33,602 nt of DNA from Nitrospinae bacterium RIFCSPLOWO2_12_FULL_45_22 (GTDB taxonomy: Bacteria; 2-12-FULL-45-22), in contig MHDQ01000011.1 of NCBI GenBank assembly GCA_001803565.1, positions 1-33,602 on the forward strand. The letters run 5' to 3'. Position numbers and translations under genes: made by a program. This document shows positions 1 to 29,788 of the stretch, one piece after another. The notes beneath the pieces were generated by a model that did not search any database, was not told the origin of the DNA, and saw only the letters and a program-made list of their open reading frames with translations. Positions within the stretch are counted from its first letter, which is position 1. Each line of letters opens with the position of its first letter.

Positions 1-2212
1 AGAGGTCTTCTTTATTGCCGTTAAAAAAACTCTTACCAGCATAGTTATTAACATCACCATAAATATTTATATAATTAGAGTTAGGGTCTGGCTTATCAGA
101 GAGGGATAAACTTACAACAATCTTTTCCTTACCCTCTATCAGCCTTCTGTCTATAGGTATCTTATGCCAGGCGAGTATTTCTGGTATGCCTCCCTGGTAG
201 GTTTTCACAACCCTATCACCTACCTTTACTGTACAATTATATGTATGCACTGCCTTGGTTCCCATGAAGCTTGCCCCCTTCATCAAGATATTCAAGCTGA
301 CCTTATTGTAATTGCCGATATTATTGGGAAGAGACAGAATTTTCTCTATCCGGTCAGTAGTCTTAGAGATATAACAGCGCCAATCCTGGATACCATCGTC
401 ATCGCTTATAACAAGAGAGTTATCAGGCTTTTTTAACCAGGATAAGATGTCTTTAAAGCCTTTGAGGCTGTTAACCTTGTTGGATACTCTAATATCTTTA
501 TTTTTTGTCTTCTGTTGATTGTTATTTGGTTGAGTATTAAAGATATACCAATAATAGCCGAAGTCGGGCTCAGTTATGAATACCAGCCGTAAAGAGTCTT
601 TATTCAAGTAGCGTGGTCCGGCAAATGCTTGAGTGACGGCCTCCGTTCCCGCAGAAGGATTAATCTCTAAATAATCGGTAAGATATTTTATACCTTGAGA
701 CTTTACATAATCGGCTATGTTAAAACTCTGCATGACTTTAAAAAACATTCGATTATTTACTATTCCATCCAGGTTTATCACTTTCCTTTCTGAGAAATAT
801 CCCACTACACCGGCATTCCATGCGCCAATAATATCCTGCGGGTCAGTGTTGTTTCGCAACCATTGGGCTACATAATAAGAATTTAGATAAGTATAAGACG
901 TACTTGAATTTTCTCCCCGGTAAGAGTAGGTATAAAAACCTGAGAGTTGATAGAGTAATGAATAGAGGAAAGCTGCTAGCAAAACTCCTGCTGGCCATAA
1001 GGTCTTTTTGAGTATGGGTGTAAATATGGTCTCTATCAGAGAAAATAGCGCATAAGGAGCTAGCATCGCAAGAAGAAGATATTCGGGAACAAAGTAATAA
1101 CCCCGGCCTACAGCAATTACAAATTTTGTAGAATAGAGGAAATAGTGGATTGTTACAAAGAGGATAAAAAATCCGGCATGGCCGAAAATCTTAGCGGGTG
1201 GATGTTCTGTCTTTTTATTCGCACCGAATAGTTTCTCAATAAACTTTAATAAGGCTAATAGTACCGCGGCCAGGAAGATAAAAACCCAGATCTTATATAA
1301 GGTGTCAAGCGATAGATTATTGTTAAAGGGCCGGATAAGATCGCAAAGATAGGTAAAGACATCATTGATAGGGTCATCCCATAAGAGAGATTTCAGCGCA
1401 ACCTTGGCTGCCCCTGAAGAGAAATATCCACCCAATCCACCAACTGTTCCCCTGCCGAGCCAGAACTTTACCTGGCCGCTTATGGGAGTTAAAAGGCCGA
1501 AACCAAGCCAATTCCAACAGAGATAAGGCAATACCGTTACAAATGATGCTATAGCAAACGAGGTTAATTTCAGTATACGCTTGTTTAAAGGTTCTTCTGT
1601 CTTCTGAAGGGCTAAGCATAAAAAGGCGGTTATGAAAAGAAAAAAGGCATCCACCCGTGCCAGGAAGGTAATGCCTACCAAGAACCCGAAAAAATAAAGA
1701 GAGGGAGAACTCCGTTGAGAAAAAGGTTTAAATTTTAAGTAATATAATAGGGTAGCGGAAAGGGTAAAGGCATAGATACTATTTTCCATGCCAGAGATAC
1801 CCAACATCATTAGTCGTGGGCTGAGTAGCCACAGGGCAGCAGCGGCCAGGGCAACCATCCAATGACTGACGGATATGACAATACGATAAAGGAAATACCC
1901 GACAAAGACATGAAATAATGCAGCCAGGGTGAGGGCCAGATGGACAAACTGTTCTTTGTCAGAGCTAATCCACCATAAGGGTACTAATAGGAACTGCCAG
2001 AGGGGTTGATAGCCATTGGTTTCATTTATACCATCAAAGCTGCTACCCTGGCCTGAAGCCATGTTATATGCGATCTGGAAATAGTAGTAGCTGTCATCTA
2101 AGGTTATATCCCGGACCAGGATCTCTATATCTGACCAGGCAAAAAAAAGCTGACTGGCCAACCCCAGGATTAAAATAGCACTAAGTAATATTCTCTGGAA
2201 GCACTTGTTCAT
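1..2212 (-). CDS. GT-C-type polytopic membrane glycosyltransferase with extra C-terminal domain (partial, runs off the left edge)
   Basis: Manual translation from ATG 2212: MNKCFQRILLSAILILGLASQLFFAWSDIEILVRDITLDDSYYYFQIAYNMASGQGSSFDGINETNGYQPLW (DD motif after first TM), SGMEN, many hydrophobic segments, IIGAWNAGVVGYFSERKVINLDGIVN. The same frame was confirmed at 2212, 818 and 2 (spot checks). Not in the ORF track, consistent with no stop in the window. Confidence 0.85.
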   Translation of the reverse strand, partial: MNKCFQRILLSAILILGLASQLFFAWSDIEILVRDITLDDSYYYFQIAYNMASGQGSSFDGINETNGYQPLWQFLLVPLWWISSDKEQFVHLALTLAALFHVFVGYFLYRIVISVSHWMVALAAAALWLLSPRLMMLGISGMENSIYAFTLSATLLYYLKFKPFSQRSSPSLYFFGFLVGITFLARVDAFFLFITAFLCLALQKTEEPLNKRILKLTSFAIASFVTVLPYLCWNWLGFGLLTPISGQVKFWLGRGTVGGLGGYFSSGAAKVALKSLLWDDPINDVFTYLCDLIRPFNNNLSLDTLYKIWVFIFLAAVLLALLKFIEKLFGANKKTEHPPAKIFGHAGFFILFVTIHYFLYSTKFVIAVGRGYYFVPEYLLLAMLAPYALFSLIETIFTPILKKTLWPAGVLLAAFLYSLLYQLSGFYTYSYRGENSSTSYTYLNSYYVAQWLRNNTDPQDIIGAWNAGVVGYFSERKVINLDGIVNNRMFFKVMQSFNIADYVKSQGIKYLTDYLEINPSAGTEAVTQAFAGPRYLNKDSLRLVFITEPDFGYYWYIFNTQPNNNQQKTKNKDIRVSNKVNSLKGFKDILSWLKKPDNSLVISDDDGIQDWRCYISKTTDRIEKILSLPNNIGNYNKVSLNILMKGASFMGTKAVHTYNCTVKVGDRVVKTYQGGIPEILAWHKIPIDRRLIEGKEKIVVSLSLSDKPDPNSNYINIYGDVNNYAGKSFFNGNKEDL

Positions 2213-2225
2213 AATGATAAGATTA

Positions 2226-2394: not shown

Positions 2395-2424
2395 ATTATA
2401 TCTGGACTGAAGGGGACTCTTCAA
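2395..2424 (-). promoter_or_regulatory. Putative sigma70 promoter for the GT-C gene
   Basis: Minus strand TTGAAG-18 bp-TATAAT. Confidence 0.5.
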
Positions 2425-2455
2425 GTAACATTATTTATTCTCCTTTTCAATTTGC

Positions 2456-2484
2456 TTGAAAATCATCCCTTAGAGAGTTAAATT
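2456..2484 (+). promoter_or_regulatory. Putative sigma70 promoter for the 2538-3116 gene
   Basis: TTGAAA-17 bp-TAAATT upstream of AGGAGG at 2522-2527. Confidence 0.35.
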
Positions 2485-2537
2485 ACCTTTGAGATTATGC
2501 ACGAGGATAGACTAACTATTCAGGAGGAGAGATACAG

Positions 2538-3116: not shown

Positions 3117-3138
3117 CTTTTGTCTTCAGAAGGGGCAA

Positions 3139-3293
3139 TAACTTGACTTTGTCACATTTGCCATGCCATTCTGAGCGAAGCGAAGAATCTTGTTATCGAA
3201 AAGCTAAGACCCTTCGCGGAGTTTACCATGAGCACAGTGAAGGGCTCAGGGTGACAAACGTGGCATCCAAATTAATGTGACTAAGTCAAAATA
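3139..3293. mobile_element. MITE-like element (family A TIR) with internal GCCATTCTGAGCGAAGCGAAGAATCT palindromic repeat
   Basis: TTGACTTTGTCACATT (3143-3158) versus AATGTGACTAAGTCAA (3274-3289), 15/16 inverted match, TA at both ends; left end matches the 16203-16223 TIR at 20/21. Confidence 0.75.
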
Positions 3294-4732
3294 AGGTTTT
3301 TCCTAAAATATCCTTTCAATTTATACCAGAGCATCTGCAGGCCAGCCCGGGCCTGGCGTTTGAACTCAGACCAGGACTTGACCTTCTTCAGCCTTTGCCA
3401 GACATATTGTGGTCTTAGGTAAAAGGAGTTATAGGCACGGGTTAAGAGGGTTACCATCTCTTCACGAGAATAGAGATCAGAGGCTATGGGTACAGGTGCT
3501 TTATAGTCCGGATTTTGGGCAAATCTTTTCCATAAGTCTTCAACCCTTCCTTGTTCTACTGCTTCCTGATAGATTTTGGTAGCCGGATAAAAGACGGTAA
3601 TGGCGTACTGGACAAAATCTGGATGGAGTTTTTTTGCTAGCTCTATAGTCTTTTGCATCTGTTCCCTGGTTTCGCCGGGATAACCCAGCATAAAATCGGC
3701 CAGGGTAGCCAATTTATATTTTTTGGCCAGCTTGAATGCCTGATATACCTGCTCTAAAGTAATCTTTTTATTCATCGCCTGAAGTATCTCCGGAGAGGCA
3801 CTCTCCACGCCAAATTGTATCCGACTACAACCAGCCTCTTTCAGGTGCCGGATAACCTCTTCATCAATGGTATCCACCCGCGAGCGTATATCAAAGATAA
3901 TATCCAGTTTTCTCTCCATTATTTCCTGACATATTGCTATCACCCTCTCTTTATTGACCGTAAAGATCTCATCAAAAAAGAAAAATTCTTTAATGCCCAT
4001 AGCTACACAGGCCTGGATTTCGTCTATTATATTAGCAACCGACCGCAACCGGAGCTTACCATCAAAGGGTATATAGCAAAAGGTGCAACGATAAGGACAC
4101 CCCCGGCTGGCCATAAGGGTAGTACTGATATTGTCTTTCCCAATAAGGGAATGGTATTTATGAAAAGGGGTAAGGTAACGGGCCGGGAAAGGTAGGGCAT
4201 CTAAATCCTTTATCCAGTTGATCCGTGGTGAGACAATAATTTCTCCGTCTCGCTGAAAGACAATCCCGTCAAGGCATGCAGGATCACTATCCTGTTCCAG
4301 ACAATGGAGAAGGTTAACCACATTCTCTTCGCCTTCCCCCAGGATCACATAATCTATCTCAGGCAAAGCGGCGGTCTCCTGGGGATAGATCTGGGCATGG
4401 GGTCCACCAGCAATAACCAGGATATTGATATTCACCTCTTTTACCGCCTTAGCCGTCTTGTAAGCCATACTCAGGGCTACAGAAGAGGTATAGATCCCTA
4501 CCAGGTCAGGATTCTTCTGCCTAACTTCTTGCTGGATCGCCTCATAGCTCATCCCCTCCACATCGGCATCTAACACCTCTACCTTATGCGAAGAGTTTGC
4601 CTCTACTGCTGCAGCCACATAAAGTAACCCCAATGGGGGGTAAAAGCCAAACGCTATATCTTTAAGGAAGTCGGCTGCCACCAGAGAAAACATAGACCTT
4701 TCATAAGGCGGATTGAGCAGCAGCAGATACAT
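3281..4732 (-). CDS. Cobalamin-binding domain radical SAM enzyme
   Basis: N-terminal B12-binding-type region (LLLNPP...PPLGLLYVAA, GGPHA, GEGE), SRGCPYRCTFC CxxxCxxC motif, FFDEIF, GVES, GYPGET. Confidence 0.92.
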   Translation of the reverse strand: MYLLLLNPPYERSMFSLVAADFLKDIAFGFYPPLGLLYVAAAVEANSSHKVEVLDADVEGMSYEAIQQEVRQKNPDLVGIYTSSVALSMAYKTAKAVKEVNINILVIAGGPHAQIYPQETAALPEIDYVILGEGEENVVNLLHCLEQDSDPACLDGIVFQRDGEIIVSPRINWIKDLDALPFPARYLTPFHKYHSLIGKDNISTTLMASRGCPYRCTFCYIPFDGKLRLRSVANIIDEIQACVAMGIKEFFFFDEIFTVNKERVIAICQEIMERKLDIIFDIRSRVDTIDEEVIRHLKEAGCSRIQFGVESASPEILQAMNKKITLEQVYQAFKLAKKYKLATLADFMLGYPGETREQMQKTIELAKKLHPDFVQYAITVFYPATKIYQEAVEQGRVEDLWKRFAQNPDYKAPVPIASDLYSREEMVTLLTRAYNSFYLRPQYVWQRLKKVKSWSEFKRQARAGLQMLWYKLKGYFRKNLILT

Positions 4733-5104
4733 TTATATGCTCCCCCGATCTTTTTTCTCCATTAGAATCTCTATCTCTTTCTCCAATAAGGCATACCTCT
4801 GGGTTAACTCTCTATGTCTTTCCGAGAGTCGAGAAAAGCCTACCGTGAGCATCAAGAGCAACGAAAGGATAAATATTATCCCTAATAGAAATAAGGCATT
4901 AGAGGGGGCCTTTATCCCCATAGCATAGGCTATCCCCCTGGCCACTGGCGGGAAACAGGCTACCAGGAGAAAGATAAGACTGGTAGCCAGCCAGAGCAGG
5001 GCATAGCGCAAAGAGAGATGCTCATTCCTTACCAGGTATATTATAATAGTCAAAAAGCCCACACCTAAAAGAATAGAGAAGATATATAGTTTGAGATCAA
5101 TCAT
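4733..5104 (-). CDS. DUF2304-family small membrane protein
   Basis: 123 aa, three TM segments, LSLRYALLWL, GIKAPSNALF, C-terminal coiled LTQRYALLE; typical partner of the adjacent DPM-synthase-like GT2. Confidence 0.85.
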   Translation of the reverse strand: MIDLKLYIFSILLGVGFLTIIIYLVRNEHLSLRYALLWLATSLIFLLVACFPPVARGIAYAMGIKAPSNALFLLGIIFILSLLLMLTVGFSRLSERHRELTQRYALLEKEIEILMEKKDRGSI

Positions 5105-5113
5105 CTTCGCCCA

Positions 5114-5809
5114 TTACCCTCGCATTTTGTCAATAATAATAGCTAGAGTAACCTTTATCATATAATAGATGGCTGACATGGGATTGATAGAGGATTTACC
5201 CAAGGCCCTTTCTTTCATTTCCACCGGTATTTCTTTAGTGATAAAACCCTTCCGGGCGAGCATAACCAGGGCTTCTGGCTCGGGGTAGTCTGGAGGATAT
5301 CGCTGGGCAAACAAGGCAATAACTTCCTTATTTACGGCCCGGAATCCCGAGGTAGGATCAGTGAAGCTCTGCCCGGTAGTTAATCCTATCAACCAGGAAA
5401 GATACCTGATCCCCATCCTCCGAAAGAAACTAGACTGGAATCCGCTTTTGTTGATATAGCGTGAGCCGATAACAACCTGGGCCTCACCTGCCAATATAGG
5501 TTCTACAAGGCTTTTGATATAACTGGCATCATGCTGCCCATCGCCATCTACCTGAACCGCTATCTCATACCCTTTACTGGCAGCATATTTATACCCGGTC
5601 TGGACTGTGGTTCCAATCCCCATATTATATGGCAGATTAATATGCGGGATATGTCTCTCTTTCAGGATAGCAAGGGTATGATCCGAAGAGCCATCATTAA
5701 TTACCAAAACATCGTCAGAAGGGGCTTCTTTCTTTAAGTTATCAATTACCGAGGCGATATTTTCTTGTTCGTTATAGGCGGGAATTATTATCAAGATCCG
5801 TTTCGACAT
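5114..5809 (-). CDS. GT2 glycosyltransferase, polyprenol-phosphate sugar synthase (DPM1-like)
   Basis: IIIPAYNE, INDGSSD, VDGDGQHD, GSRY, DPTSGFRA, DYPEPE motifs. Confidence 0.92.
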   Translation of the reverse strand: MSKRILIIIPAYNEQENIASVIDNLKKEAPSDDVLVINDGSSDHTLAILKERHIPHINLPYNMGIGTTVQTGYKYAASKGYEIAVQVDGDGQHDASYIKSLVEPILAGEAQVVIGSRYINKSGFQSSFFRRMGIRYLSWLIGLTTGQSFTDPTSGFRAVNKEVIALFAQRYPPDYPEPEALVMLARKGFITKEIPVEMKERALGKSSINPMSAIYYMIKVTLAIIIDKMRG

Positions 5810-5847
5810 TGCTCTGAAAGCCCTTTGACTAGGTTAGAAAACCCTAC

Positions 5848-6858
5848 TTATCTATTGGCGGTACATTCCTGTCTAGGCGATTTTCTTTTTTGTCTATCCA
5901 ATAGCCAGAATCGCAGAATCCCTACTGCCATCCCTAAGCTCCGGGCAAACCCCCGGGAAAAATTTATGGGTATGATCATAAGATATTTGTATTGCCTTTT
6001 GCGGGCGGCTATTTTAGCTGCTAGGGGGATTTGAAAAATTAGTCCGAGGGTAGAAAGTATCAATAAAATTTGATCAACAGGCGATAACCAAACAAAAGGA
6101 ACCAGCCCAAAAGTTAACAAAAAGCAGGGGGGTTGGATAAAATCAAATAAGCCACTATAATCATCCCCTCGCATCATCCCCGGATGGTCTTGGTAAAGCT
6201 TCACTCGCCAATAACCATGCCAGAATTGATGTCTTAGGTACCGGAGAAAATTGCTTGGGTGATAGTGAAAAACCAGGGCCTCCTTTTCAAAATATAAACT
6301 ATATCCTGCTTTAATTAGTCTATAGCACAGGTCATTATCTTCTCCACTGGCCTGGGTATACTCTTCATTAAAGCCTCCTATTTTTTCTAGTAATCTTTTA
6401 GGCACTGAAAGGTTATATGATCCGAGGGCCTTGGCCCTTTTAGGCATTTGTTCATGCCTTAATAAAATTTCTTGATGGATACAGGCAGCTAATAAGTTCT
6501 CTTCGTTAGCTATGCTATAACTCCCCCCAACCGCACCAACATCTTTAGCATTAAAATTCCTTACCAGCTTCTGTACCCAATCGTTATGAGGAATACAATC
6601 AGAGTCAGTAAAGCAGATGATATCTCCCTGGGCAGCTTCCCAGCCAGTATTTCTAGCTTTTGCCGGGCCACTGTTTTCCTGAAAGATGTATCCCACTGGA
6701 TAACTTCTCACTATTTTTTGTGTATCATCCGTTGAGCCGTCGTCTACTATAATTACTTCTATTTCTCCCTGGTCATATATTTGTTGCAGGCATGCTTCTA
6801 TGGCTTGGGCAATGGTCTTTTGAGAATTAAAGGCTGGAATGACAATAGAAATATTCAC
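5848..6858 (-). CDS. GT2 glycosyltransferase with C-terminal membrane segments
   Basis: SIVIPAFN, VDDGSTD, GPAKARN, FTDSDC (DxD), GEDNDL; hydrophobic C-terminus; GTG start. Confidence 0.92.
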   Translation of the reverse strand: MNISIVIPAFNSQKTIAQAIEACLQQIYDQGEIEVIIVDDGSTDDTQKIVRSYPVGYIFQENSGPAKARNTGWEAAQGDIICFTDSDCIPHNDWVQKLVRNFNAKDVGAVGGSYSIANEENLLAACIHQEILLRHEQMPKRAKALGSYNLSVPKRLLEKIGGFNEEYTQASGEDNDLCYRLIKAGYSLYFEKEALVFHYHPSNFLRYLRHQFWHGYWRVKLYQDHPGMMRGDDYSGLFDFIQPPCFLLTFGLVPFVWLSPVDQILLILSTLGLIFQIPLAAKIAARKRQYKYLMIIPINFSRGFARSLGMAVGILRFWLLDRQKRKSPRQECTANR

Positions 6859-6860
6859 TC

Positions 6861-8270
6861 TTATTTTTGAATTAATAACCTAATCAGTTTAGTTAAATTG
6901 GCCCAGAAGATACGGGGCTGGAAAAAAAATTCTTTCAAGCCAGTAATAAAATATCCGGGCCTAAAATAAAACTTGCGGTAAGCTGTTCCCACTGAATTTT
7001 TCATTTCTTCAGCCGATAAGTTTTCATATTCAAAAATAGGCTGCATCGGCATAAAATCTGACCAATCTCTAGTTAATAATCTGTTTTCTCGGCTTAGAAT
7101 TTCATAAAATTTTGTCCCGGGGAAAGGGACTGCACTACTGAACTGAACGGTAGTTGGGTTTAATCTTTTGGCAAGATCAATAGTTTCCCGGATAGTCTCC
7201 TTTGTTTCCCCCGGCAGGCCAAAGACAAAGGTAGCATGTACATGAAAACCTATTTTTTTCATTAGTGAAATTGCTTGCTTTACCTCAGAGAGGGCATACC
7301 CTTTTTTTGTCTTATCTAAAATTTGTTGGCTACCGCTTTCTACCCCAACCTTCAGGAGATAACACCCTGCTTTTCTGAGCTTATGCAAAAAGTCTTCACC
7401 CCTATCATCCGCCCTGGCATAACACGCCCAATCCAGCTTCAATCCACTGTTAATCATCTCATCACAGACTTCTAAGGCATGTTTCTTGTCGGCAGTAAAG
7501 GTATCATCATTGAACAGTATACTTCTAAAGTTGTATTGCTGGATGATATTTTTTATTTCCTCTGTGATATTTTTGGCTGACCTTAGCCGATATTTCCTTC
7601 CGGTTAAGACTTGAGGCCAGTTACAGAATATGCACTTATAGGGACATCCCCGTCCACCCAAAATAAAGGTAAAAGGGTTTTTTAAAATAGGATCAAAATA
7701 TTTATAGTTAGGCAAGAGGTCCCGGGCTGGAAAAGGTAGGAGGTCCAGATTTTCCAAATATTCCCTGTTTTCATTTCTTATAATTACTCCATTATCAGCA
7801 CGGTAAGCAATACCTTTAGTGCCATTAGGCCCTTTAGAAATATATTCTTCTAAAGAAATTTCATACTCCCCTATTACCACAGCATCGAGGGGTTCTTGGG
7901 TTAAAGACTCTTCTGGTAAGGCTGACACATGGGGCCCTAAAAAGATTATTTTAGCTGCCCCTAACCTAGACTTTATCAGTTTGCTAACCTCGGCATCGTT
8001 ATAAAACGAAGGGGTAGAGGTTTCAAAGACTATACATTGTGGGTTTATGGCTGTTATTTCCTCCAGGAAAGCATCAACCGCCTTCCTCTCTACTACGGGA
8101 TCAAGCAGGAATATTTCGTGCCCTTTTGATCGGAGATAAGAAGCCGCATAAGCTAACAACAACGGGGGATGCAGAACCGGCGTAGCATAATTAAAGGTAG
8201 GGAACCGAATCGGCCGATTAAAGCTTCCTATGTTTTTAAATGTTGGAGGATTAGCCAATAAAACTTTCAT
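6861..8270 (-). CDS. Cobalamin-binding domain radical SAM enzyme
   Basis: VLLANPP, PPLLLAYAAS, GPHVS, GRGCPYKCIFC, NDDTFT, GVESG, GLPGET motifs. Confidence 0.92.
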   Translation of the reverse strand: MKVLLANPPTFKNIGSFNRPIRFPTFNYATPVLHPPLLLAYAASYLRSKGHEIFLLDPVVERKAVDAFLEEITAINPQCIVFETSTPSFYNDAEVSKLIKSRLGAAKIIFLGPHVSALPEESLTQEPLDAVVIGEYEISLEEYISKGPNGTKGIAYRADNGVIIRNENREYLENLDLLPFPARDLLPNYKYFDPILKNPFTFILGGRGCPYKCIFCNWPQVLTGRKYRLRSAKNITEEIKNIIQQYNFRSILFNDDTFTADKKHALEVCDEMINSGLKLDWACYARADDRGEDFLHKLRKAGCYLLKVGVESGSQQILDKTKKGYALSEVKQAISLMKKIGFHVHATFVFGLPGETKETIRETIDLAKRLNPTTVQFSSAVPFPGTKFYEILSRENRLLTRDWSDFMPMQPIFEYENLSAEEMKNSVGTAYRKFYFRPGYFITGLKEFFFQPRIFWANLTKLIRLLIQK

Positions 8271-14870: not shown

Positions 14871-15969
14871 ATGTTAGAAGATTTGAGTAAAAGGCTTTTT
14901 CCGTTAAAAGACAAATTAGAGGACTTGCGGGACTGTCTTTGACCTGGGAGGTAAGCAGATAGAGATAGATAAACTCAACCAGAAAATCTCCCGGTCGGAT
15001 TTTTGGATAGATAATGCACAGGCCCAGATAACCCTTAAGCAAAGGGCTGTCCTCTCAGATACTGTAGGGCAATGGGAAAATTTGGCTAAGCAACTAGAAG
15101 AGTGCCAGCTCATGATAGAACTAGCCCAGGAAGAAGGGGATTTGTCCTTAGGACTGGAGCTAGAGGAGGGAATCGGAACTTTAGAAAAAAAAGTACAAGA
15201 GATGGAGTTGGAAACTCTCCTGCCAGGGCCGCAAGACCTCAACAATGCAATCCTCTCTATCCATCCCGGCGCCGGAGGGACAGAATCGCAGGACTGGGCA
15301 GAGATCCTTTATTATATGTATTTGAAGTGGGCGGAAAAGAGGGGTTTTAAACTCGAGATTATTGACTGGCAGAACGGTGAGGAAGCGGGGATCAAAAGCG
15401 CCACTTTTTCTATTGCCGGTAGATATGCCTATGGATATCTTAAAGGCGAGACCGGCGTTCATCGCCTGGTGCGTATTTCCCCCTTTGATTTTAACCGGAG
15501 ACGTCATACTTCCTTTGCTTCAGTATTTGTCTATCCCGAGATAGATGAAGAAATAAAGATTGAGGTAGACGAGACGGACCTGCGGGTGGATACATTCAGG
15601 TCCAGCGGTGCAGGTGGGCAGCATGTTAATGTAACAGATTCGGCTGTAAGGATAACCCATCTCCCTACCGGGATTGTGGTTCAGTGCCAGAATGAGCGCT
15701 CCCAGCACAAGAATAAGGCTATGGCTATGAAGGTCTTACGGGCCAGACTCTACCAACTGGAGTTACGCAAGCAGACCGAGCAGATGGAGGAGAGGCATAA
15801 AAATAAGAAAGAAATTGCCTGGGGTAATCAGATCAGGTCTTATATCCTCTACCCCTATCGCCTGGTAAAAGACCACCGCACCGGTTTAGAAAAAGGGGAT
15901 GTAGATAAGGTCTTGAATGGTGAAATTAATGACTTTATTGAGGCATATCTGAAAAAGAGACTACCTTGA
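14871..15969 (+). CDS. prfB: Peptide chain release factor 2 (programmed +1 frameshift, ~365 aa)
   Basis: ATG 14871 gives 23 codons ending CTT TGA (14937-14942); the +1 frame from 14941 (DLGGKQ...) joins the 15082-15969 ORF with SPF and GGQ motifs. Confidence 0.96.
14928..14943 (+). promoter_or_regulatory. RF2 autoregulatory frameshift site
   Basis: CGGGAC TGT CTT TGA C; canonical CTTTGAC slip site. Confidence 0.92.
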
Positions 15970-16237: not shown

Positions 16238-17722
16238 GTGGAGGAAAGCAACGTCCTGATTTCTCAACGTATAGAGAAGCTCAAGGAATTAAAAGGAGCG
16301 GGTATAAACCCCTACCCTAATAGATATAAGGTAACTGACTCTATTCAGGAAATGATTGAGAAATATGGTCCTCTTAACCAGCAAGAGCTTGAAGGGCAAA
16401 AAGATAATCACTGCCTGGCAGGTAGAATCATGAGCAAACGGGAGCATGGCCGTACCTCGTTCTGCCATATCCAGGATGGTAGTGGTAGGATTCAGATCTA
16501 TGTCAGGAAGGAGGATTTGGGAGAAAAGCAATTCGACATTTTCTCAAAGTTTGATGTTGGCGATTTTATTGGGGTAAAAGGCCCTATCTTTAAGACCAGG
16601 ACCGGCGAGTTGACTCAGTGGGCGAATGATATTACTCTCTTGTCCAAGTCTTTACGTCCCTTACCGGAAAAATGGCATGGATTAAAGGATATTGAAATTC
16701 GCTACCGCCAGAGGTATGTGGACCTCTTGATGAATCCTCAAGTTAAAAAGGTATTTCTGATCCGTAGTCGAATCATCCAAACGATCAGGGATTTTTTCAA
16801 TAAAAGAGGCTTCATAGAAGTAGAAACGCCTATGATGCAGCCCATTCCTGGTGGGGCATTAGCCCGGCCTTTCGTTACCCATCATAATGCATTAGATATG
16901 GACCTTTACCTTAGAGTAGCCCCAGAACTCTATCTGAAGAAGCTAATTGTGGGTGGCATGGAGAGGGTATATGAGATCAATAAAAACTTCCGTAATGAAG
17001 GACTCTCACGGGAACATAACCCCGAATTTACTATGTTAGAATTTTATATGGCCTATGCTGATTATAATGATCTTATGGTCCTAACCGAAGAATTACTATC
17101 GGGCTTAGCCCACCAAACCATGGGAAGCCTACGGATAAAGTTCAATGAACAAGAGATTGATTTTACTACTCCCTGGCTTAAGTTAAGTTTCTATCAGGCC
17201 CTTAGAGAAGTGGGCCAGGTAGACCCAGAGGTTTTACAAGAACGGGATGCGGCTTATAGATTCGCCGAGAATTTATCTCTCCATGTTCGTCCGGGCGATA
17301 ATCATGGCCAGATATTGGATAAGATCTTTGCCGAAATCGTGGAGCCCAAATTAATCCAACCTACTTTTATCCTGGATTATCCTAAAGAACTCTCCCCACT
17401 CTCTAAGTCTAAGGAAGACGATCCTAACCTGGTAGAGAGGTTCGAGTTCTTTATAGCGGGGAAAGAGATTGCCAATGCCTATACGGAATTAAATGACCCT
17501 CTTGACCAGAAGGAGAGGTTTATAACCCAGGCCCAGTCCCGGGAGTATGAATATGAAGAGTGCTTATGGATGGATAAAGATTTTATCTGGGCCTTAGAAT
17601 ACGGTATGCCCCCTACAGCGGGTGAAGGGATAGGGATTGATAGGCTGGTGATGGTCTTTACTGATTCTCCTTCAATCAAAGATGTAATCCTTTTCCCACA
17701 ATTGAAACTTGAAACTCCATAA
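16238..17722 (+). CDS. lysS: Lysine--tRNA ligase (class II)
   Basis: [60 protein letters not shown]. Confidence 0.98.
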
Positions 17723-17730
17723 TTTAGGTT

Positions 17731-18960
17731 ATGCCTTACGAGCTGGATATAGGCCTTAGATACTTGAAGGCCAGAAGAAAACAGACTTTTATTTCCCTCA
17801 TTACCTGGATCTCTATTGCGGGGGTAACAGTAGGGGTAATGGCCTTGATCATTGTCCTGGCAGTAATGGCTGGGTTTGAGGAAGATTTGCGCAATAAGAT
17901 CCTGGGTACTAATTCCCATATTGTTATCTTAGAGCCTGGCAGCCCCGGCATGGCCCAATATCAAGGGGCCATTGATAAGGTGGAAAAGGTAGATCACGTC
18001 ATATCGGCTACCCCCTTCATTTATAGTCAGGCTATGCTCACCAGCACTGGCAGTGTTTCCGGAGTAGTTATTCGGGGAATAGACCCTTTACGGGAGGCCA
18101 GGGTTACTAATCTGGCAGAGAATTTAAAAGAAGGGTCTCTAACCGACCTTGAGAAAAACAATGGCGTAGGTGGAGGGGTAATCATAGGCCAGGAGTTAGC
18201 CCGTAATCTTGGGATATCTTTGGGGGAAGAGATTACCATCATATCACCTCTAGGGAAAATGACCCCCATAGGCATGGTGCCTCGAATGAAGAAGTTTTGG
18301 GTGGCAGGTATTTTTGATTCCGGTATGTATGAATATGATACTGGTTTAGCTTTTATCTCCTTGAAAAATGCCCAAAATTTCTTTAACATGGGAGATAGGG
18401 TAACGGGTATCGAAGTAAAAGTGGATGATATCTACAAGGCAGATAAAATAGCCAATAATATCCAAAAACTCTTAGGGGTACCTTATTGGGTCAGGGACTG
18501 GATGGAGATGAATAAAAACTTATTTTCTGCCCTAAAATTGGAGAAGGTGGTAATGTTTGTAATCTTAACCCTGATTGTCTTAGTGGCCGCCTTCAATATT
18601 ATCAGCACCTTAATTATGGTGGTTATGGAAAAGGGGAAAGATATAGCTATCCTGAAATCTATGGGCGCTACCAATAAAAGTATCATGAAAATCTTTATGC
18701 TGGAAGGTATAATAATTGGTGTAGCCGGGACTATTATCGGTGTCATAGGCGGTTATTTGGTATGCCACTTATTGGAAACTTACCATTTCATTAAACTCCC
18801 TAGTGATGTATATTATTTAGATACTCTTCCGGTAAAGATGGAAGGGGGGGATTTCCTGGTAGTAGCCTTAGCGGCTATTACTATAAGCTTCTTAGCTACT
18901 CTTTACCCTTCCTGGAATGCGGCCAGACTTAATCCAGTAGAGGCTATCCGGTATGAATAG
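17731..18960 (+). CDS. lolC: Lipoprotein-releasing ABC transporter permease (LolC/E family)
   Basis: IGLRYLKARRK...FISLI, LAVMAGF, AAFNIISTLIMVVMEK, DIAILKSMGA, YPSWNAARLNPVEAIRYE. Confidence 0.92.
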   Translation: MPYELDIGLRYLKARRKQTFISLITWISIAGVTVGVMALIIVLAVMAGFEEDLRNKILGTNSHIVILEPGSPGMAQYQGAIDKVEKVDHVISATPFIYSQAMLTSTGSVSGVVIRGIDPLREARVTNLAENLKEGSLTDLEKNNGVGGGVIIGQELARNLGISLGEEITIISPLGKMTPIGMVPRMKKFWVAGIFDSGMYEYDTGLAFISLKNAQNFFNMGDRVTGIEVKVDDIYKADKIANNIQKLLGVPYWVRDWMEMNKNLFSALKLEKVVMFVILTLIVLVAAFNIISTLIMVVMEKGKDIAILKSMGATNKSIMKIFMLEGIIIGVAGTIIGVIGGYLVCHLLETYHFIKLPSDVYYLDTLPVKMEGGDFLVVALAAITISFLATLYPSWNAARLNPVEAIRYE

Positions 18961-19649
18961 TGATAAAGGAAGAATCCTTGCTAATTCAAGCGGTTGATCT
19001 TCATCGGATATTTTTTGTGGGCCAGCAAAAGCTGTATGTGCTAAAAGGCATTAATTTAGAGGTGAAGGTGGGGGAGATGTTGGGCATAGTGGGCGCTTCG
19101 GGGGTAGGGAAGAGCACCCTTCTCCACCTTATGGGTACCCTGGATCGTCCTAACCAGGGTAAAGTCTTCTTTAATGGTTTTGACCTATTCTCCCTGGCTG
19201 ATGAAAAATTAGCCCATTTTAGGAACCAAAAAATAGGGTTTGTTTTTCAATTCCATCACCTATTACCAGAGTTTAGTGCCTTAGAAAATACCTTGATACC
19301 TGCCTTGATCAAGCGGGAGGACAAAAGAAAAGCACGGGAAAGGGCGGTAGAGCTCCTTACTGAGATAGGGTTGGGGCAGAGGTTACATAATAAACCGGGG
19401 GAGTTATCTGGTGGTGAACAGCAGCGGGTAGCAGTAGCCAGGGCCTTAATGAATGACCCAGAAATTATCCTGGCTGATGAACCGACCGGCAACCTTGACC
19501 GGCAGACCGGGGAAGCTGTTTTTCAGCTCCTATGCCGTTTAAATAAAGAAAAAGGTAAGACTTTTGTTATTGTCACCCATAGCCAGGAGATGGCTTTAAA
19601 GATGGATAGGGTATTAAAGTTAGTAGATGGTTCAATTTTAGCTGATTGA
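18960..19649 (+). CDS. lolD: Lipoprotein-releasing ABC transporter ATPase
   Basis: [44 protein letters not shown]. Confidence 0.93.
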
Positions 19650-25394: not shown

Positions 25395-25518
25395 TAAGCG
25401 TTCAGCAATCAGCAAAATTAGGTGATTACGTGATTAGGTCAGGGGGTCATTACGTAAACCGATAACTCAATAACCTAATGACCCAATGACCTAATAACCG
25501 TTGTTGCTGAAAGCTTAT
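25394..25518. mobile_element. MITE-like element (family B) with octamer palindromic cargo
   Basis: GTAAGCGTTCAGCAA ... TTGCTGAAAGCTTAT; interior GTGATTAC/GTGATTAG versus CAATAACC/TAATGACC/CAATGACC units also seen near 14650-14725. Confidence 0.7.
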
Positions 25519-25524
25519 CAGATT

Positions 25525-26547
25525 ATGAAATTAAAAGAGATAGCAGATTTTTTGGCGGGAGAGCTAAGAGGGCATCCAGAGATAGAGATTTCTAGTGTTG
25601 CCAGTATCACGGAAGCCCAATCCCACCAAATAACCTTTCTTGCCCATAAGAAACACCTTGATCGCCTCTCCCATTGCCAGGCCGGTGCCATTATTGTACC
25701 AGACGGGATAGAACCAGCACTGCCCCATATAAAAGTAAAAAATCCTTATTTAGCCTTTGCCTATCTCCTGGAGCTTTTCTATCCAAAACCCAGGCCAATG
25801 CCGGAGATAAGCCCCTTGTCTTATATCGGACCAAATACTCTGATAGGGGAAGGGGTTACTGTCTTTCCCTATGTCTATATCGGGGAAGAGGCAGTTATTG
25901 GACATCACTCCATCATTTATCCTGGCGCCTTTCTCGGAGACCGGGTAAAGATAGGATCGGAAACCACCATCTATGCCAACGTAAGTATCTATGATGCTGT
26001 GTCTATAGGTAATAATGTAATCATCCATAGTGGGGCAGTTATAGGCAGCGATGGTTTTGGCTTTGTAAAAAAAGACGATGGCACCCACCATAAAATTCCC
26101 CAGATAGGTAGCGTAGTCATTGAAGACTGGGTAGAGATTGGGGCTAATGTCTGTATAGATCGGGCCAATCTGGGGCAGACGGTCATCAAGTCAGGCACAA
26201 AATTCGATAACCTGAGTCATATTGCCCATAATGTAGTAATTGGTGAAAACTCTATCATTGTTGCCCAGGTAGGTATCTCAGGTAGCTGTACTATCGGTAA
26301 GAACGTAACCCTGGCCGGTCAGGTAGGTATGGTAGACCACATAAATATTGGCGATAACGCCATCGTCATAGCCCAGTCTGGTTTAACCCAGGATGTAGAG
26401 GCTAATGCTGTAGTCTCAGGCTCACCCGCTGTACCTCACCCGGTATGGCTTAAGATACATGCCAGTCTCCCCAAATTGCCAGAATTGATCAGAACTATCC
26501 GGCAATTAGAGAAGCGGATAGAAGCACTAGAAGGCGAGAGGAGGTGA
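25525..26547 (+). CDS. lpxD: UDP-3-O-(3-hydroxyacyl)glucosamine N-acyltransferase
   Basis: MKLKEIADFLAGEL, NPYLAFA, hexapeptide repeats, GSDGFGF, KIPQIG, DNLSHIAHNV; the upstream TTG 25501 lies within the MITE. Confidence 0.95.
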   Translation: MKLKEIADFLAGELRGHPEIEISSVASITEAQSHQITFLAHKKHLDRLSHCQAGAIIVPDGIEPALPHIKVKNPYLAFAYLLELFYPKPRPMPEISPLSYIGPNTLIGEGVTVFPYVYIGEEAVIGHHSIIYPGAFLGDRVKIGSETTIYANVSIYDAVSIGNNVIIHSGAVIGSDGFGFVKKDDGTHHKIPQIGSVVIEDWVEIGANVCIDRANLGQTVIKSGTKFDNLSHIAHNVVIGENSIIVAQVGISGSCTIGKNVTLAGQVGMVDHINIGDNAIVIAQSGLTQDVEANAVVSGSPAVPHPVWLKIHASLPKLPELIRTIRQLEKRIEALEGERR

Positions 26548-26553
26548 GGGAAA

Positions 26554-26616
26554 ATGAAGATTAAGAAGGTAGTTAAAACTTCCAATGGCCTTTGTAAGTG
26601 CAAGAGCTCCTGTTAA
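26554..26616 (+). CDS. Putative RiPP precursor peptide, 20 aa MKIKKVVKTSNGLCKCKSSC
   Basis: SD AGGAGGTGA (26539-26547) 6 nt before ATG; Lys-rich N-half, C-terminal CxCxxxC; upstream of a radical SAM/SPASM gene; below the ORF-track size cutoff. Confidence 0.75.
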   Translation: MKIKKVVKTSNGLCKCKSSC

Positions 26617-26620
26617 CTTA

Positions 26621-26714
26621 GCCACAGAGGGCACAGAGAATAAATTTAGAGTGTTTCGCCACTAATGCTCCTCTTATTTTCTATCATCTCTGTGCTCTCT
26701 GGGTACTCTGTGGC
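26621..26714. repeat. Nonamer-type stem-loop between peptide gene and downstream genes
   Basis: GCCACAGAGGGCACAGAGA ... TCTCTGTGCTCTCTGGGTACTCTGTGGC inverted arms. Confidence 0.7.
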
Positions 26715-26761
26715 AAGAAATTAAAGGTATTTCTACAAAAGAATAATTAATAAAGTTTCCT

Positions 26762-27136
26762 ATGCGAGCGCAGAAAAAGCTGAGAAATTTGGTCTGCCAG
26801 AGATATTGCTTCTTTTTTAAACCTGATAGAAAAGAGGATTTGGCCTGTGAAGGCATTCTCTTCCTGGAAAAAGGTTTAGAGAAGGGGTTACTAAGCTGGG
26901 AACTCCTATCCGCCCTATATTATCCTATCCCATTCCTTCAAGAATACCCTTTTGACTCGATACTAAAGACAAGATTATGTCACTTATGTCCATTCTTACC
27001 GGATGGGTGTGATTTTAGAGATCAGACCTCATTGACCAGCGCCCCTCCTTGTGGTGGATATTTGATCCTACAAAATTTAATACAACTGGGTTTGCTTGAC
27101 CCCGCCCTACTTATGCTCATCAGGCCCACAGAGTAA
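26762..27136 (+). CDS. Cys-rich hypothetical protein coupled to the radical SAM gene
   Basis: 124 aa, 7 Cys: Cx3Cx12C and Cx2Cx6Cx13C; stop overlaps the next ATG (TAATG). Confidence 0.8.
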   Translation: MRAQKKLRNLVCQRYCFFFKPDRKEDLACEGILFLEKGLEKGLLSWELLSALYYPIPFLQEYPFDSILKTRLCHLCPFLPDGCDFRDQTSLTSAPPCGGYLILQNLIQLGLLDPALLMLIRPTE

Positions 27137-28284
27137 TGGATGGGTTTATCCGTATAGCAGATCATTGCACCCTGAAACAACTGGAAGATTTCTATCTGTA
27201 TGATATACGGGCGGATGATTTATACCAGTTGGATCAGGAAGCAGCAAAATTCTTACTACTTTGTGACGGGACTAAACGGCTTGCAGAATTAAAGGCCGAT
27301 CCCGAATTTATCAGATATTGTCTGGAAAATGGGTTAATAGAACTCCATCCTGCTCCTCAGCCTAAAACTATAAGAATTTCCCCATCGCCTAAGCCTTCAT
27401 TACGTTATCTAGAACTGCAACTAACCCATCGCTGTAATCTCCAGTGTCACCATTGCTATTTAGGAGAGTCTCGCCCTATAGATTTAGATTTTAGTTTAGC
27501 AGTGAATATTATGGAAGAATTTCAGACTATCCAGGGCCTACGGATTATCCTCTCTGGCGGTGAGCCGCTCCTCTATCCCCGTTTCCGGGAACTTAACGAA
27601 CTATTACCAGCTTATGCCTTCCGGAAAGTCCTCCTGAGTAATGCCACCCTACTAACACCTGAGCTGACCCGAAGTTTAAAGGTAGATGAAGTGCAGATAA
27701 GCTTAGATGGTCTGGAGAGAGGGCATGAAGCCCTCAGGGGTTACGGGACATATAGTCGCACTATGAGGGGGTTGCAAGCCGTCCGATCTGCCGGCCTAGA
27801 CCTTTCTGTAGCTACTATGCTCCATCTTTATAATCTGAATGAAATCCCAGCGCTAGCTAAAAAGTTAACTACCTATGGTATAAAAGAATGGGGTATTGAT
27901 TTGCCCGTTGTTAAGGGGAGATTAGAACATAGCAAAGACCTAGCCTTGTCGGCCGAACAAGCGGCCCCTTATCTTAAATATCGCTTTGGGGAGAGTTATC
28001 ATAGCGATGCCGGGGGATACGCTTGTGGATATCATCTTTGTACCATTATGCCCGATAGCCGTGTGTGCCAATGCGGTTTTTATATGGATCGAGCTGTAGG
28101 CCATATCGAGGAAGGGTTAGCGAATTGCTGGCAGCGCATTGACCATATATCCTCAGCAAACCTGGAGTGTAAAGATTGTTCCTTTTTACCGGAATGTCGG
28201 AGTGGATGTCGCTACCGGGCTCCTAGCCCCAGCGGTCCCGACCCTCTGATGTGTGCCTTTTTTGGGGTAAGGAGTGATATTTAG
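27136..28284 (+). CDS. Radical SAM/SPASM enzyme with N-terminal PqqD-like (RRE) region; probable peptide maturase
   Basis: CNLQCHHC, SGGEPLL, QISLDG; SPASM ACGYHLC...VCQC and CKDCSFLPECRSGC-x14-C; N-terminal LYQLDQEAAKFLLLCDGTK...LENGLIE pattern. Confidence 0.88.
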   Translation: MDGFIRIADHCTLKQLEDFYLYDIRADDLYQLDQEAAKFLLLCDGTKRLAELKADPEFIRYCLENGLIELHPAPQPKTIRISPSPKPSLRYLELQLTHRCNLQCHHCYLGESRPIDLDFSLAVNIMEEFQTIQGLRIILSGGEPLLYPRFRELNELLPAYAFRKVLLSNATLLTPELTRSLKVDEVQISLDGLERGHEALRGYGTYSRTMRGLQAVRSAGLDLSVATMLHLYNLNEIPALAKKLTTYGIKEWGIDLPVVKGRLEHSKDLALSAEQAAPYLKYRFGESYHSDAGGYACGYHLCTIMPDSRVCQCGFYMDRAVGHIEEGLANCWQRIDHISSANLECKDCSFLPECRSGCRYRAPSPSGPDPLMCAFFGVRSDI

Positions 28285-29543
28285 CTAGCCATATTGTTTC
28301 GGTAAAGATTGCTCTCCAAGAGTAGGGACTTCAATACTCTTCGTCTGGCTGTCCTCCTCTGATTCTCTTTATACCGGGGATAAGATTTTTGATACTGCTC
28401 ATAGGCTTCTCTATCCATTATCTGGATCTCGAAGGGATAGTAAAAAGATATATAGCGGCTCATCCGGGACAGGGAACCTTTAATATTCTGGATAACCTTT
28501 TTGTGGTAAGAAATTAGCTCCCGATGGATGGGGGGAGCTGCATCTACTTTCTGCACTAAATCTTTATGCTGCTTTTCTAACTCCTGGAGGAGTTTGAACT
28601 GGGTCTGATACTCCGGATTTTCGATCTCTATCTTTTCGCGGCTGGTGAAATTCATAGCTCGATAGTCAACAGAATGCGGGTTATCATTCTTGCTCTTATC
28701 CACTATTACTACTCCTTCTTCTAGCAGGCGAAAATAACCCCCAAGTTGCTTCTTGTCCCCCCGCTTTAAGACTTTTTCTAGCTCATCTAAAGGCATTAAG
28801 GTATTCTTGGTCCTCCCCGGAATGCTATTAGGATAGGAGAGGATATTTTCCTTGACTAAAAAATTGACAATTTTTAGGGCATCCAGCTTGGATTTTGCTA
28901 TAAGCCTCACCCCCACTACATCGGTTATTTCGGTGACGATATTCTCTCTTTTATGCAGGAGCTTCACGATGATACTCTCTCGTTCCTTGATCCTCTTAAG
29001 GTCAAGGGCCACCAGGGGGATAATATCATTCCCCTTTTGCCCTAGGTACATCTGTCCGCCCTCATCATACTGGATATATCTTTTTATCTTGGCCAGGATC
29101 TTTTCTTGAATATGGTGGATGTATTTAAAGCGGATATCGTCTTCTAGATGATAAATGGTATGCATAACCCGCAATAGGGCACAAGCCCATTTCTGCTGTA
29201 AATTGCCATCTTTCCTACGCGGGGGAGAGGTAGCCATTTGTAATAGGGAATAGATATCTGTCTGGGGGGAGCGGATCTCTTCTGGAATTTCCAGTTCCTC
29301 GTCTTTTAACAAGTGGGTTTGGATGAATTCTATAGCCTCTGCCTTAATCCTATCAACCTTTGCTAGATCCTCTAACGAAATGCCGTATGAACAGAGGAAA
29401 TTTTCTATTGCTTCCCGGCTCCCTCCCTCTAACCGGAGCCTCTCTAAATCAATAGGTGATTCTCCTTTTAAGATAGGGCCAATGTTGCGTAAGAGCCGGT
29501 AGAGTTCGTGCTTAGTTACGGCTGGATATGCCTCTTTCTTCAT
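28281..29543 (-). CDS. TIGR04552-like protein (RelA/SpoT nucleotidyltransferase-like motifs)
   Basis: WACALLRVMH, KERESIIVKLLHKRE, DVVGVRLI, PGRTKNTL, NPHSVDYRAMNFTSR, PFEIQIMD. Confidence 0.75.
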   Translation of the reverse strand: MKKEAYPAVTKHELYRLLRNIGPILKGESPIDLERLRLEGGSREAIENFLCSYGISLEDLAKVDRIKAEAIEFIQTHLLKDEELEIPEEIRSPQTDIYSLLQMATSPPRRKDGNLQQKWACALLRVMHTIYHLEDDIRFKYIHHIQEKILAKIKRYIQYDEGGQMYLGQKGNDIIPLVALDLKRIKERESIIVKLLHKRENIVTEITDVVGVRLIAKSKLDALKIVNFLVKENILSYPNSIPGRTKNTLMPLDELEKVLKRGDKKQLGGYFRLLEEGVVIVDKSKNDNPHSVDYRAMNFTSREKIEIENPEYQTQFKLLQELEKQHKDLVQKVDAAPPIHRELISYHKKVIQNIKGSLSRMSRYISFYYPFEIQIMDREAYEQYQKSYPRYKENQRRTARRRVLKSLLLESNLYRNNMAS

Positions 29544-29660: not shown

Positions 29661-29788
29661 CCAGTAGATCATCTCGCAAAATACAAATTACAACCACAAA
29701 GTCACAAAGGTCACAAAGAGATAAAAAGTTTAGACTTTGTGTTCTTTGTGTCTTGGTGTCTTGGTGGTTAGTATGAGATTTTTTCTAG
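29661..29788. mobile_element. MITE-like element with nonamer palindromic cargo
   Basis: CCAGTAGATCATCTCGCA ... TATGAGATTTTTTCTAG degenerate ends; arms AACCACAAAGTCACAAAGGTCACAAAG / CTTTGTGTTCTTTGTGTCTTGGTGTCTTGGTGGTT. Confidence 0.6.

Follow-up and report, generated by a model that had tools for sequence, protein, structure and literature searches.

The subject of this work is a group of three adjacent genes on contig MHDQ01000011.1 of Nitrospinae bacterium RIFCSPLOWO2_12_FULL_45_22 (assembly GCA_001803565.1), of which positions 1 to 33,602 of the forward strand were analyzed (33,602 nucleotides; hereafter the window). Gene A is an unannotated open reading frame (ORF) of 20 codons with the product MKIKKVVKTSNGLCKCKSSC, gene B encodes a Cys-repeat protein, and gene C encodes an enzyme in which a domain resembling the recognition element (RRE) of systems for peptides that are ribosomally synthesised and modified post-translationally (RiPPs) precedes a radical S-adenosylmethionine (SAM) core and a SPASM domain (Table 1). 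As set out below, the three genes probably form a peptide-maturation module with A as the precursor, C as the modifying enzyme and B as a helper.

The initial annotation of the window, which was made from the sequence without database searches, had described a tiny ORF whose Shine-Dalgarno (SD) sequence is formed by the 3' end of lpxD, followed by a seven-cysteine gene translationally coupled to the gene of a CxxxCxxC/SPASM enzyme with an N-terminal extension, and this layout holds in all its parts. The lpxD gene (25501-26547; NCBIfam lpxD, E 1e-121) ends in GAG AGG AGG TGA and so supplies the GGAGG of the peptide gene. A spacer of 145 nt separates the peptide gene from gene B, and the TAA of gene B shares one base with the ATG of gene C (TAATG).

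Table 1. Features of the three-gene locus; positions are those of the window.
Feature	Position	Strand	Characteristics	Basis
Shine-Dalgarno sequence GGAGG of the peptide gene	26540-26544	+	within the last lpxD codons, 9 nt 5' of the ATG	read from the sequence
Gene A, 20-residue precursor-like peptide	26554-26616	+	basic N-terminal half, C-K-C-x-x-S-C end	ORF read
Stem-loop from a CACRRAG heptad palindrome	26621-26714	+		inverted repeats and RNA fold
Gene B, 124-aa Cys-repeat protein	26762-27136	+	two CxxC...C units, exactly 7 Cys	alignment and unit hidden Markov model
Gene C, 382-aa enzyme	27136-28284	+	RRE-like domain, radical SAM core and SPASM	Pfam PF04055, invariant columns, structure model

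The peptide gene and its distribution

A scan in which each species was represented by one genome identified 68 orthologous loci (L013-L080), which together with the window (L001) and the locus of genome G019 (L002) make up the 70 orthologous loci to which the counts in this work refer. The bacterial carriers are Desulfobacterota, Nitrospirota, Chloroflexota and Actinomycetota, and the archaeal carriers are Methanoperedens, Archaeoglobus, Geoglobus, Hydrothermarchaeota, Mnemosynella and Sifarchaeum. Desulfarculus baarsii and Desulfomonile tiedjei are among the species with reported orthologues. The lineages carrying the module are anaerobes, and in the genome from which the window derives it is present once. 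Judged by sequence, the peptide, the Cys protein and the RRE-like radical SAM/SPASM enzyme are conserved together, as one unit, in both bacteria and archaea.

The initial annotation had anticipated that a conserved short Cys-containing ORF would accompany homologues of the enzyme, and this is what the search for short ORFs returned. The pattern x13-C[KERQ]C-x2-3-[STA]C-x0-2-stop was found in 57 of the 70 loci, each time next to the module, and has no match in 37 non-orthologous control loci covering 249,513 bp; in the 3.67-Mb genome of the window there is a single genuine copy. The consensus of 60 copies reads M-[KT]-I-[KR]-K-[VI]-x-[KR]-x-x-x-G-[LTM]-C-K-C-x-x-S-C-stop, with a length of 20 residues, or of 21 in Methanoperedens, one Archaeoglobus and several Actinomycetota, where an extra residue follows the last Cys. 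It should be noted that C14, C16 and C20 and the residue classes at positions 15 and 19 are set by the search pattern and therefore carry no weight in an argument from conservation. A start codon, which the pattern does not demand, stands exactly at position 1 in 58 of the 60 copies (ATG in 52, GTG in four and TTG in two), and a GGAGG-like site lies 5-10 nt 5' of most of these mini-ORFs. Several positions left free by the pattern are kept as well, i.e., I3 in 56, K5 in 58, V or I at position 6 in 56, K or R at position 8 in 58 and G12 in 46 of the 60 copies. No two of the 60 DNA sequences are the same: the four GGN codons are used about equally often for G12, and codons of the TCN as well as the AGY type for S19. 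This synonymous variation, together with the conservation of positions beyond the pattern, indicates selection on the amino-acid sequence, and the 20-codon ORF is accordingly a real and conserved gene, kept from Desulfobacterota and Nitrospirota to Methanoperedens and Archaeoglobus. It escapes gene callers and family models (the peptide and five homologues gave no NCBIfam family at E<=10), yet few features of the locus are as well conserved.

The position of the peptide gene varies: in 37 loci it lies 5' of, and on the same strand as, the helper gene, and in 20 it is located just 3' of the enzyme gene, 19 of these being same-strand cases. Among the 13 loci in which the pattern is lacking, seven are limited by contig ends and six have flanks of 1.5-6 kb. 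Five of the six well-flanked genomes (G019, G041, G042, G043 and G044) proved on a whole-genome pattern search to carry unlinked copies, each with an SD site, and the copy of G019, which is located on another contig (L114, 1468-1524), is in addition followed by a terminator-like hairpin. The loci of these unlinked genes are L114, L115, L116, L117, L119 and L120, with at least two copies in G044. Within the orthologous loci themselves, L037 and L041 hold two peptide copies each, and L043 has a truncated copy at the contig edge.

In the window the peptide gene is followed by a pronounced stem-loop. The RNA fold of 26612-26725 has an energy of -36 kcal/mol (z -3.96), and none of 200 dinucleotide shuffles was as stable. 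This hairpin is built of CACRRAG heptads which belong to a dispersed palindromic repeat family of the genome, similar to repetitive extragenic palindromes; a second copy is present in the window at 29690-29770, and the 3.67-Mb genome contains at least 26 sites with three heptads and 38 CACAGAG pairs. Of 60 family members, 40 have a fold with z<-2 (against mononucleotide shuffles) in the 80 nt past the peptide stop, and in many a GC-rich hairpin precedes a U run, also in loci whose helper and enzyme genes lie downstream. A strong hairpin or terminator thus usually sets the peptide gene apart from the genes downstream. RiPP precursor genes are often separated from the genes of their enzymes by such hairpins.

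A scan of metagenomes matched the window itself, a 99.8% identical contig (L094) and, beyond these, only relatives at about 47% identity. In L094 the peptide ORF is unchanged; the A-run that separates the lpxD stop from the ATG is longer by a 1-nt insertion (26551), and five clustered substitutions are found at 26506-26517, at the end of lpxD. A look-up of sequencing runs listed none of RNA for the region. Two runs of one sample each gave one 193-nt contig which corresponds exactly to 26510-26702, i.e., to the peptide gene and its hairpin, with no differences. The library of these two runs is labelled metatranscriptomic, its kind is uncertain (probably DNA), and it was given no weight as evidence of expression; runs of DNA extend past both ends of this interval.

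The enzyme and the Cys-repeat protein

The Pfam model Radical_SAM (PF04055) matches residues 95-243 of C with an E-value of 1.2e-17 (65 bits, against a cut-off of 29.5), and the cluster motif C100-x3-C104-x2-C107 is invariant in 22 aligned homologues. SPASM domains are defined by the motif C-x9-15-G-x4-C ... C-x2-C-x5-C-x3-C ... C. This seven-cysteine motif is found in the C-terminal part of the enzyme as C297-x10-G308-x4-C313 ... C345-x2-C348-x5-C354-x3-C358 ... C373, with all seven Cys invariant and G308 nearly so in the same 22 sequences, and the C-terminus aligns with those of anSME, SuiB and CteB. Ahead of the core there are about 85 residues, of which residues 4-71 are modelled as strands followed by helices. 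In structural alignments (VIA-align) the AF2 model of C, which has a predicted local distance difference test score (pLDDT) of 92.1, was matched over practically its whole length by SkfB (Z 26.3, root mean square deviation 4.7, 328 aligned residues, model 9..368, about 21% identity) and by SuiB (Z 25.3, 352 aligned residues, model 3..380), whereas anSME (Z 24.0, 285 aligned residues) was matched over 84..379 only and CteB (Z 23.2) over 85..378. SkfB was also the best hit of the family profile among all PDB sequences (E 4.6e-21). A peptide-recognition domain is present at the N-terminus of SuiB and SkfB and is not known from anSME. Since the alignments with SuiB and SkfB run over the whole length and that with anSME begins only at residue 84, the N-terminal 85 or so residues of C probably resemble, in their structure, the recognition domain found in those two enzymes. 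From its sequence and its predicted structure, C therefore appears to have the architecture of a peptide maturase.

No curated NCBIfam model reaches its cut-off with C, and the matches cover the core only. The best partial scores were obtained with AhbD (86.6 bits), NirJ2 (83.4), ScmE (76.7), SbtM (74.5) and MftC (67.3). For the models TIGR04545, TIGR04546, TIGR04051 and TIGR04055, which represent AhbD, AhbC and NirJ, the scores are 86.6, 70.9, 75.3 and 83.4 bits against cut-offs of 500-650, over residues 95-282 only, and the StsB model NF045574, with a cut-off of 625, gave 52.1 bits. Among 5.8 billion proteins C has a large family of full-length relatives: the best 120 matches are 45-100% identical to it over 95-100% of its length, and their named sources are Nitrospinota, Syntrophobacterales, Desulfobaccales, Desulfarculus and other 'Deltaproteobacteria'. 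Its near relatives P0002-P0005 share 68-86% identity with it.

Protein B has a relative adjoining the enzyme gene in 64 of the 70 loci (62 by the unit hidden Markov model, with L025 and L050 added by tblastn); two of the six loci lacking a match are L060, which is cut at a contig end, and L041, which has only 570 nt upstream. In an alignment of 36 long forms the seven cysteines (C12, C16, C29, C73, C76, C83 and C97) and the pair G98-G99 are invariant. Archaea, Chloroflexota, Actinomycetota and some Desulfobacterota have a form of 47-100 aa composed of a single unit, C-x2-C-x-F-[YFW]-K ... E-C-[GA]-[GA]-F-x-x-L-x-x-L-L-x-x-G. The model of this unit, which is about 45 residues long, matches both halves of the window's B (E 2e-4 and 6e-8), and the 124-aa protein is therefore the product of an internal duplication. 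In 7 Nitrospirota loci the B gene is divergently transcribed. An automatic count gave 11 of the 70 loci, or 13 with L050 and L075, in which B is fused N-terminally to the enzyme; likewise, forms of about 500 aa make up 27 of the best 120 database matches of C, and the seven of these that were aligned carry B at the N-terminus. Neither the duplication within the 124-aa protein nor its frequent fusion to the enzyme had been noticed in the initial annotation. In L075, from the metagenome-assembled genome (MAG) of a member of the Desulfobacterales, an in-frame stop is located in the variable linker of the fused helper domain (about 5629-7137), and this could be a sequencing error, a sign of a pseudogene or a recoded codon.

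The unit profile was also compared with 1.84 billion representative proteins, and at E<=1e-3 there were 296 matching clusters. With few exceptions, the best 150 listed are small proteins (47-150 aa) made up of one or two units and nothing else; among the exceptions are proteins of 505 aa (N-terminal unit, as in the fusions), 474 aa (C-terminal unit) and 233 aa. The unit is thus found almost exclusively in small proteins of its own or joined to this enzyme. Pfam holds no family for B, as 36 members gave scattered matches only (E>=0.07), and in the ESM Atlas it matched nothing other than clusters of 'hypothetical protein'. The AF2 model is helical (pLDDT 82.7); a Foldseek search of the PDB with it returned nothing at E<=0.001, and its best match in VIA-align, the N-terminal domain of XpsE (Z 5.5 over 58 residues), is not convincing. 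B thus represents a new Cys-repeat domain for which the searches of Pfam, the PDB and the ESM Atlas gave no known fold or family. Because it consists of a duplicated unit which is often fused to the enzyme, B is best regarded as a helper subunit and not as a third independent player, and it appears to work physically with C. When a complex of C with B, SAM and three 4Fe-4S clusters was predicted, the score was 0.00, which is evidence neither way.

A proposed peptide-maturation module and its alternatives

The reading which we favor, with a probability of about 0.7, is that A, B and C form a three-gene module for the maturation of a RiPP-type peptide, in which A is the precursor, C the enzyme and B the helper. 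In the proposed mechanism the basic N-terminal half of A (M-K-I-K-K-V-x-K) would be bound by the RRE-like domain of C, and the C-K-C-x-x-S-C end would be the part that is modified. C would cleave SAM at its CxxxCxxC cluster, and the 5'-deoxyadenosyl radical so formed would abstract a hydrogen from the peptide core. With the assistance of the auxiliary clusters, a Cys sulfur would then most probably be joined to a carbon of a neighbouring residue, giving thioethers of the sactionine or ranthionine type. This type of bond is considered the most probable because thioether synthases are among the enzymes nearest in structure and sequence (SkfB, followed by CteB, PqqE, anSME and SuiB) and the invariants of the core are three cysteines. 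For B, with its 3+4 invariant Cys, the most probable ligand is iron, an Fe-S cluster or zinc, and it may be attached to C as a supplier of electrons or clusters or as a presenter of the peptide. A precedent is provided by CrpC, an enzyme of the RRE-radical SAM-SPASM type which, according to passages of PMC13692751, installs thioethers on the Cys-rich protein CrpA encoded adjacent to it.

Several observations weigh against this reading. The peptide gene is unlinked to the enzyme gene in five genomes, and in another, G045, a whole-genome search with the pattern found no peptide gene. The seven invariant cysteines of B would fit a substrate too. The Pfam SPASM model has no match to C at E<=0.01, and the highest core scores are those of enzymes with non-peptide substrates, AhbD and NirJ2, slightly above those of the peptide maturases. 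As to the RRE proposed in the initial annotation, it is supported by the whole-length structural matches with SuiB and SkfB and not by the sequence profile, since the Pfam PqqD model gave matches below threshold in two of 16 homologues (E 0.013 and 0.24) and none for the protein of the window. Finally, with its 20 residues A is shorter than any precursor known to us from a characterized radical SAM peptide system.

The first alternative to be weighed is that B is the substrate, cross-linked in the manner of the Crp or QhpC proteins, and that the 20-mer serves as a cofactor, ligand or partner of mature B. The seven invariant cysteines of B, its position next to C in 64 of the 70 loci and its lack of a known fold or family would all suit such a role, and the alternative stays alive because CrpC, as passages of PMC13692751 describe it, is an RRE-radical SAM-SPASM enzyme that acts on a Cys-rich protein encoded beside it. 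We nevertheless regard it as unlikely. Were B the substrate, its fusion to the N-terminus of C, seen in 11-13 of the 70 loci and in the long forms among the best 120 matches, would make the enzyme a single-turnover, self-modifying one; moreover the structure model of B is folded and helical, its CxxC...C sites are typical of metal binding, and the co-conserved, leader-like 20-mer would be left unexplained.

Appreciably less probable is that C acts on a non-peptide substrate such as a tetrapyrrole, in the way of AhbD and NirJ, with A and B as accessory factors for Fe-S clusters or metals. The partial NCBIfam scores are highest for AhbD and NirJ2, the carriers are anaerobes, and NifS and NifU, rhodanese and disulfide reductase genes are sporadic neighbours of the module. 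Against this, the 86.6 and 83.4 bits lie far below the lowest of the cut-offs (500), cover the core (95-282) only and barely exceed the scores of peptide maturases; the alignments with SuiB and SkfB pair their N-terminal parts with that of C, and no tetrapyrrole or other pathway genes are conserved near the 70 loci.

A regulatory role for the mini-ORF must also be considered, as a leader peptide which, together with the hairpin, would form a Cys- or Lys-sensing attenuator controlling B and C. The arrangement in the window, where B and C are preceded by a short ORF with many Cys and Lys codons and by a strong hairpin, looks like that of an attenuator, and terminator-like hairpins follow the mini-ORF in many other loci. 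This explanation fails because the peptide gene is located 3' of the enzyme gene in 20 of the 57 loci and because unlinked copies occur in five genomes, where they have SD sites of their own and, in G019, a terminator-like hairpin too; the N-terminal residues, the exact length and the terminal Cys, all kept from bacteria to archaea, would be needless for an attenuator, and we hold the proposal to be very improbable.

The ORF could, lastly, be a chance frame between lpxD and the gene of the Cys protein: the locus of G019, the nearest genome searched, has no room for it, ORFs of 20 codons are common and the SD sequence is made of lpxD codons. The short-ORF scan refutes this reading (57 of 70 loci against none in the controls, with the gene of G019 lying on another contig), and the SD sites, start codons and synonymous variation leave it a negligible probability.

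Returning to the three-gene maturation module, it resembles several known systems and matches the curated models of none. With SkfA/SkfB and other sactipeptide systems it shares a radical SAM core, a gene for a Cys-containing peptide beside the enzyme gene and, as predicted from the structure model, an N-terminal recognition domain. SkfB has a twitch domain instead of a full SPASM domain, its precursor is much longer, and skf clusters include export and immunity genes. Here, in contrast, the identity to SkfB is about 21%, the seven-cysteine SPASM motif is complete, the peptide is a 20-mer, exporter and protease are lacking and there is an extra Cys-repeat helper. The SCIFF and ranthipeptide systems (CteA-CteB, PapA-PapB) are similar in that a short Cys-rich peptide and a radical SAM-SPASM enzyme with an RRE, or here an RRE-like domain, are combined in a compact cassette, mostly in anaerobes. 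The SCIFF peptide has six Cys in about 45 residues. There are three in 20 residues here, helper B is without counterpart in those systems, and the structural match to CteB excludes the N-terminal domain. C scores 49.5 bits with the PapB model NF047865 (cut-off 340), and no curated SCIFF or ranthipeptide model is reached by either peptide or enzyme (we take the SCIFF models to be TIGR03973 and TIGR03974), so that the likeness of the peptide to SCIFF put forward in the initial annotation is an analogy only. That the trio could not be matched to a named family, as stated in the same place, agrees with the NCBIfam results for the enzyme and with the lack of a Pfam family for B.

Mycofactocin (MftA, MftB and MftC) offers another parallel, with its very short precursor, C-terminal residues modified by a radical SAM-SPASM enzyme, a third small protein and the lack of an exporter. 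Its product is intracellular. The MftC model TIGR03962 gave 67.3 bits with C (cut-off 265); unlike MftB, which is a stand-alone RRE, the third protein here is a Cys-repeat protein and the RRE-like domain lies within the enzyme, and no further tailoring genes of the mycofactocin type are conserved. The system thus resembles those of sactipeptides and ranthipeptides or that of mycofactocin, and is distinguished from them by its 20-residue precursor, its new Cys-repeat helper, the lack of genes for processing or export and its spread over bacteria and archaea. In CrpA/CrpC of Methanococcus voltae an RRE-radical SAM-SPASM enzyme is paired with a Cys-rich substrate encoded alongside. In passages of PMC13692751, CrpC is described as containing three [4Fe-4S] clusters, as forming ranthionine thioethers and as a member of TIGR04463, a model which is not among the 25 best NCBIfam matches of C. 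CrpA is described there as large, with a 17-residue Cys motif repeated ten times, whereas the candidate substrate here is a 20-mer and the Cys protein a helical one of two units. Reductive desulfurisation with NaBD4 is described for StsA in passages of PMC10288494 and is named for CrpA in PMC13692751. Searches of the full-text literature, which included strings of the peptide motif, gave no description of peptide, helper or trio, and neither did passages of a compendium of 15,000 radical SAM RiPP enzymes (PMC10288494), whose supplementary tables could list the enzyme.

The fate of the product is suggested by what the module lacks. No protease or dedicated exporter is conserved across the 70 loci, as the initial annotation had proposed for the window, and the product is therefore probably intracellular and would consist of the whole small peptide. 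The absence of export and processing genes, together with the spread over two domains of life, argues for a cellular role in metal, sulfur or redox biology and not in antibiosis. More specifically, and as a tentative proposal only, the product could be an intracellular, peptide-derived thiol or metal cofactor of anaerobes, with B as its carrier or assembly scaffold; the matured 20-mer would then be a redox-active prosthetic peptide, or one carrying an Fe-S cluster or metal, following a logic comparable to that of mycofactocin, of pyrroloquinoline quinone and of cluster assembly by NifB. We arrive at this proposal from the absence of protease and exporter, the single module in the genome, the unlinked or multiple peptide genes, the neighbouring NifS/NifU, rhodanese, disulfide reductase and YHS genes and the spread across domains in anaerobes.

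If A is the substrate, it would to our knowledge be one of the shortest RiPP-type precursors, and the module would offer a minimal system for the study of peptide recognition and cross-linking by RRE-radical SAM/SPASM enzymes. Were the module to serve metal, sulfur or redox biology within the cell, this would be a role of a new kind for systems of this type.

Genomic setting of the module

In the window the module is surrounded by genes of other functions. Upstream there are the housekeeping genes prfB, lysS, lolC- and lolD-like genes, a Clp ATPase gene, bamA, skp and lpxD, and downstream a convergent gene of the TIGR04552 family is followed by uvrB. The convergent gene (28281-29543, minus strand) is a member of TIGR04552/TIGR04562 (E 1e-79), an uncharacterised family; it also gave a weak signal for a RelA_SpoT nucleotidyltransferase, and at its 3' end it shares 4 nt with the stop of gene C. 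Both lpxD and this gene are local neighbours outside the module, and the latter is not kept beside the module elsewhere. No sigma-70-like site was found by a promoter scan of 26300-27300, and no Rfam family matched in the window.

Clustering of all ORFs of at least 80 aa across the 70 loci gave no neighbour family present in more than nine. The sporadic neighbours include a 112-118-aa protein with no Pfam family (nine loci), an FAD (flavin adenine dinucleotide) amine-oxidase-like protein (five), ABC/FtsX transport genes (five), NifS together with NifU (four) and a pyridine-nucleotide disulfide oxidoreductase (four), in addition to single cases of a YHS-domain protein and of a metallo-beta-lactamase-rhodanese fusion, identified by Pfam just 5' of the module in L013. 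A rhodanese-like protein of about 135 aa is also encoded beside the unlinked peptide gene in two Methanoperedens (L117, 589-1005; L119, 1111-1512); its likeness to rhodanese and its lipoprotein-like N-terminus were judged by eye from the sequence, and the two archaea are congeneric. Rhodanese-like neighbours may hint at sulfur transfer.

Two further observations concern the upstream genes. The release-factor ORF at 15082-15969 (plus strand; PCRF/RF-1 domain) begins only at position 49 of the PCRF profile, and the N-terminal remainder may be encoded upstream in another frame, as in prfB, where a programmed frameshift occurs. In L049, from the MAG of an uncultured bacterium, lysS and lolC/lolD-like genes are located just 5' of the module (1805-5435) in the same way as at 16238-19649 of the window, and this shared context may be a remnant of synteny.

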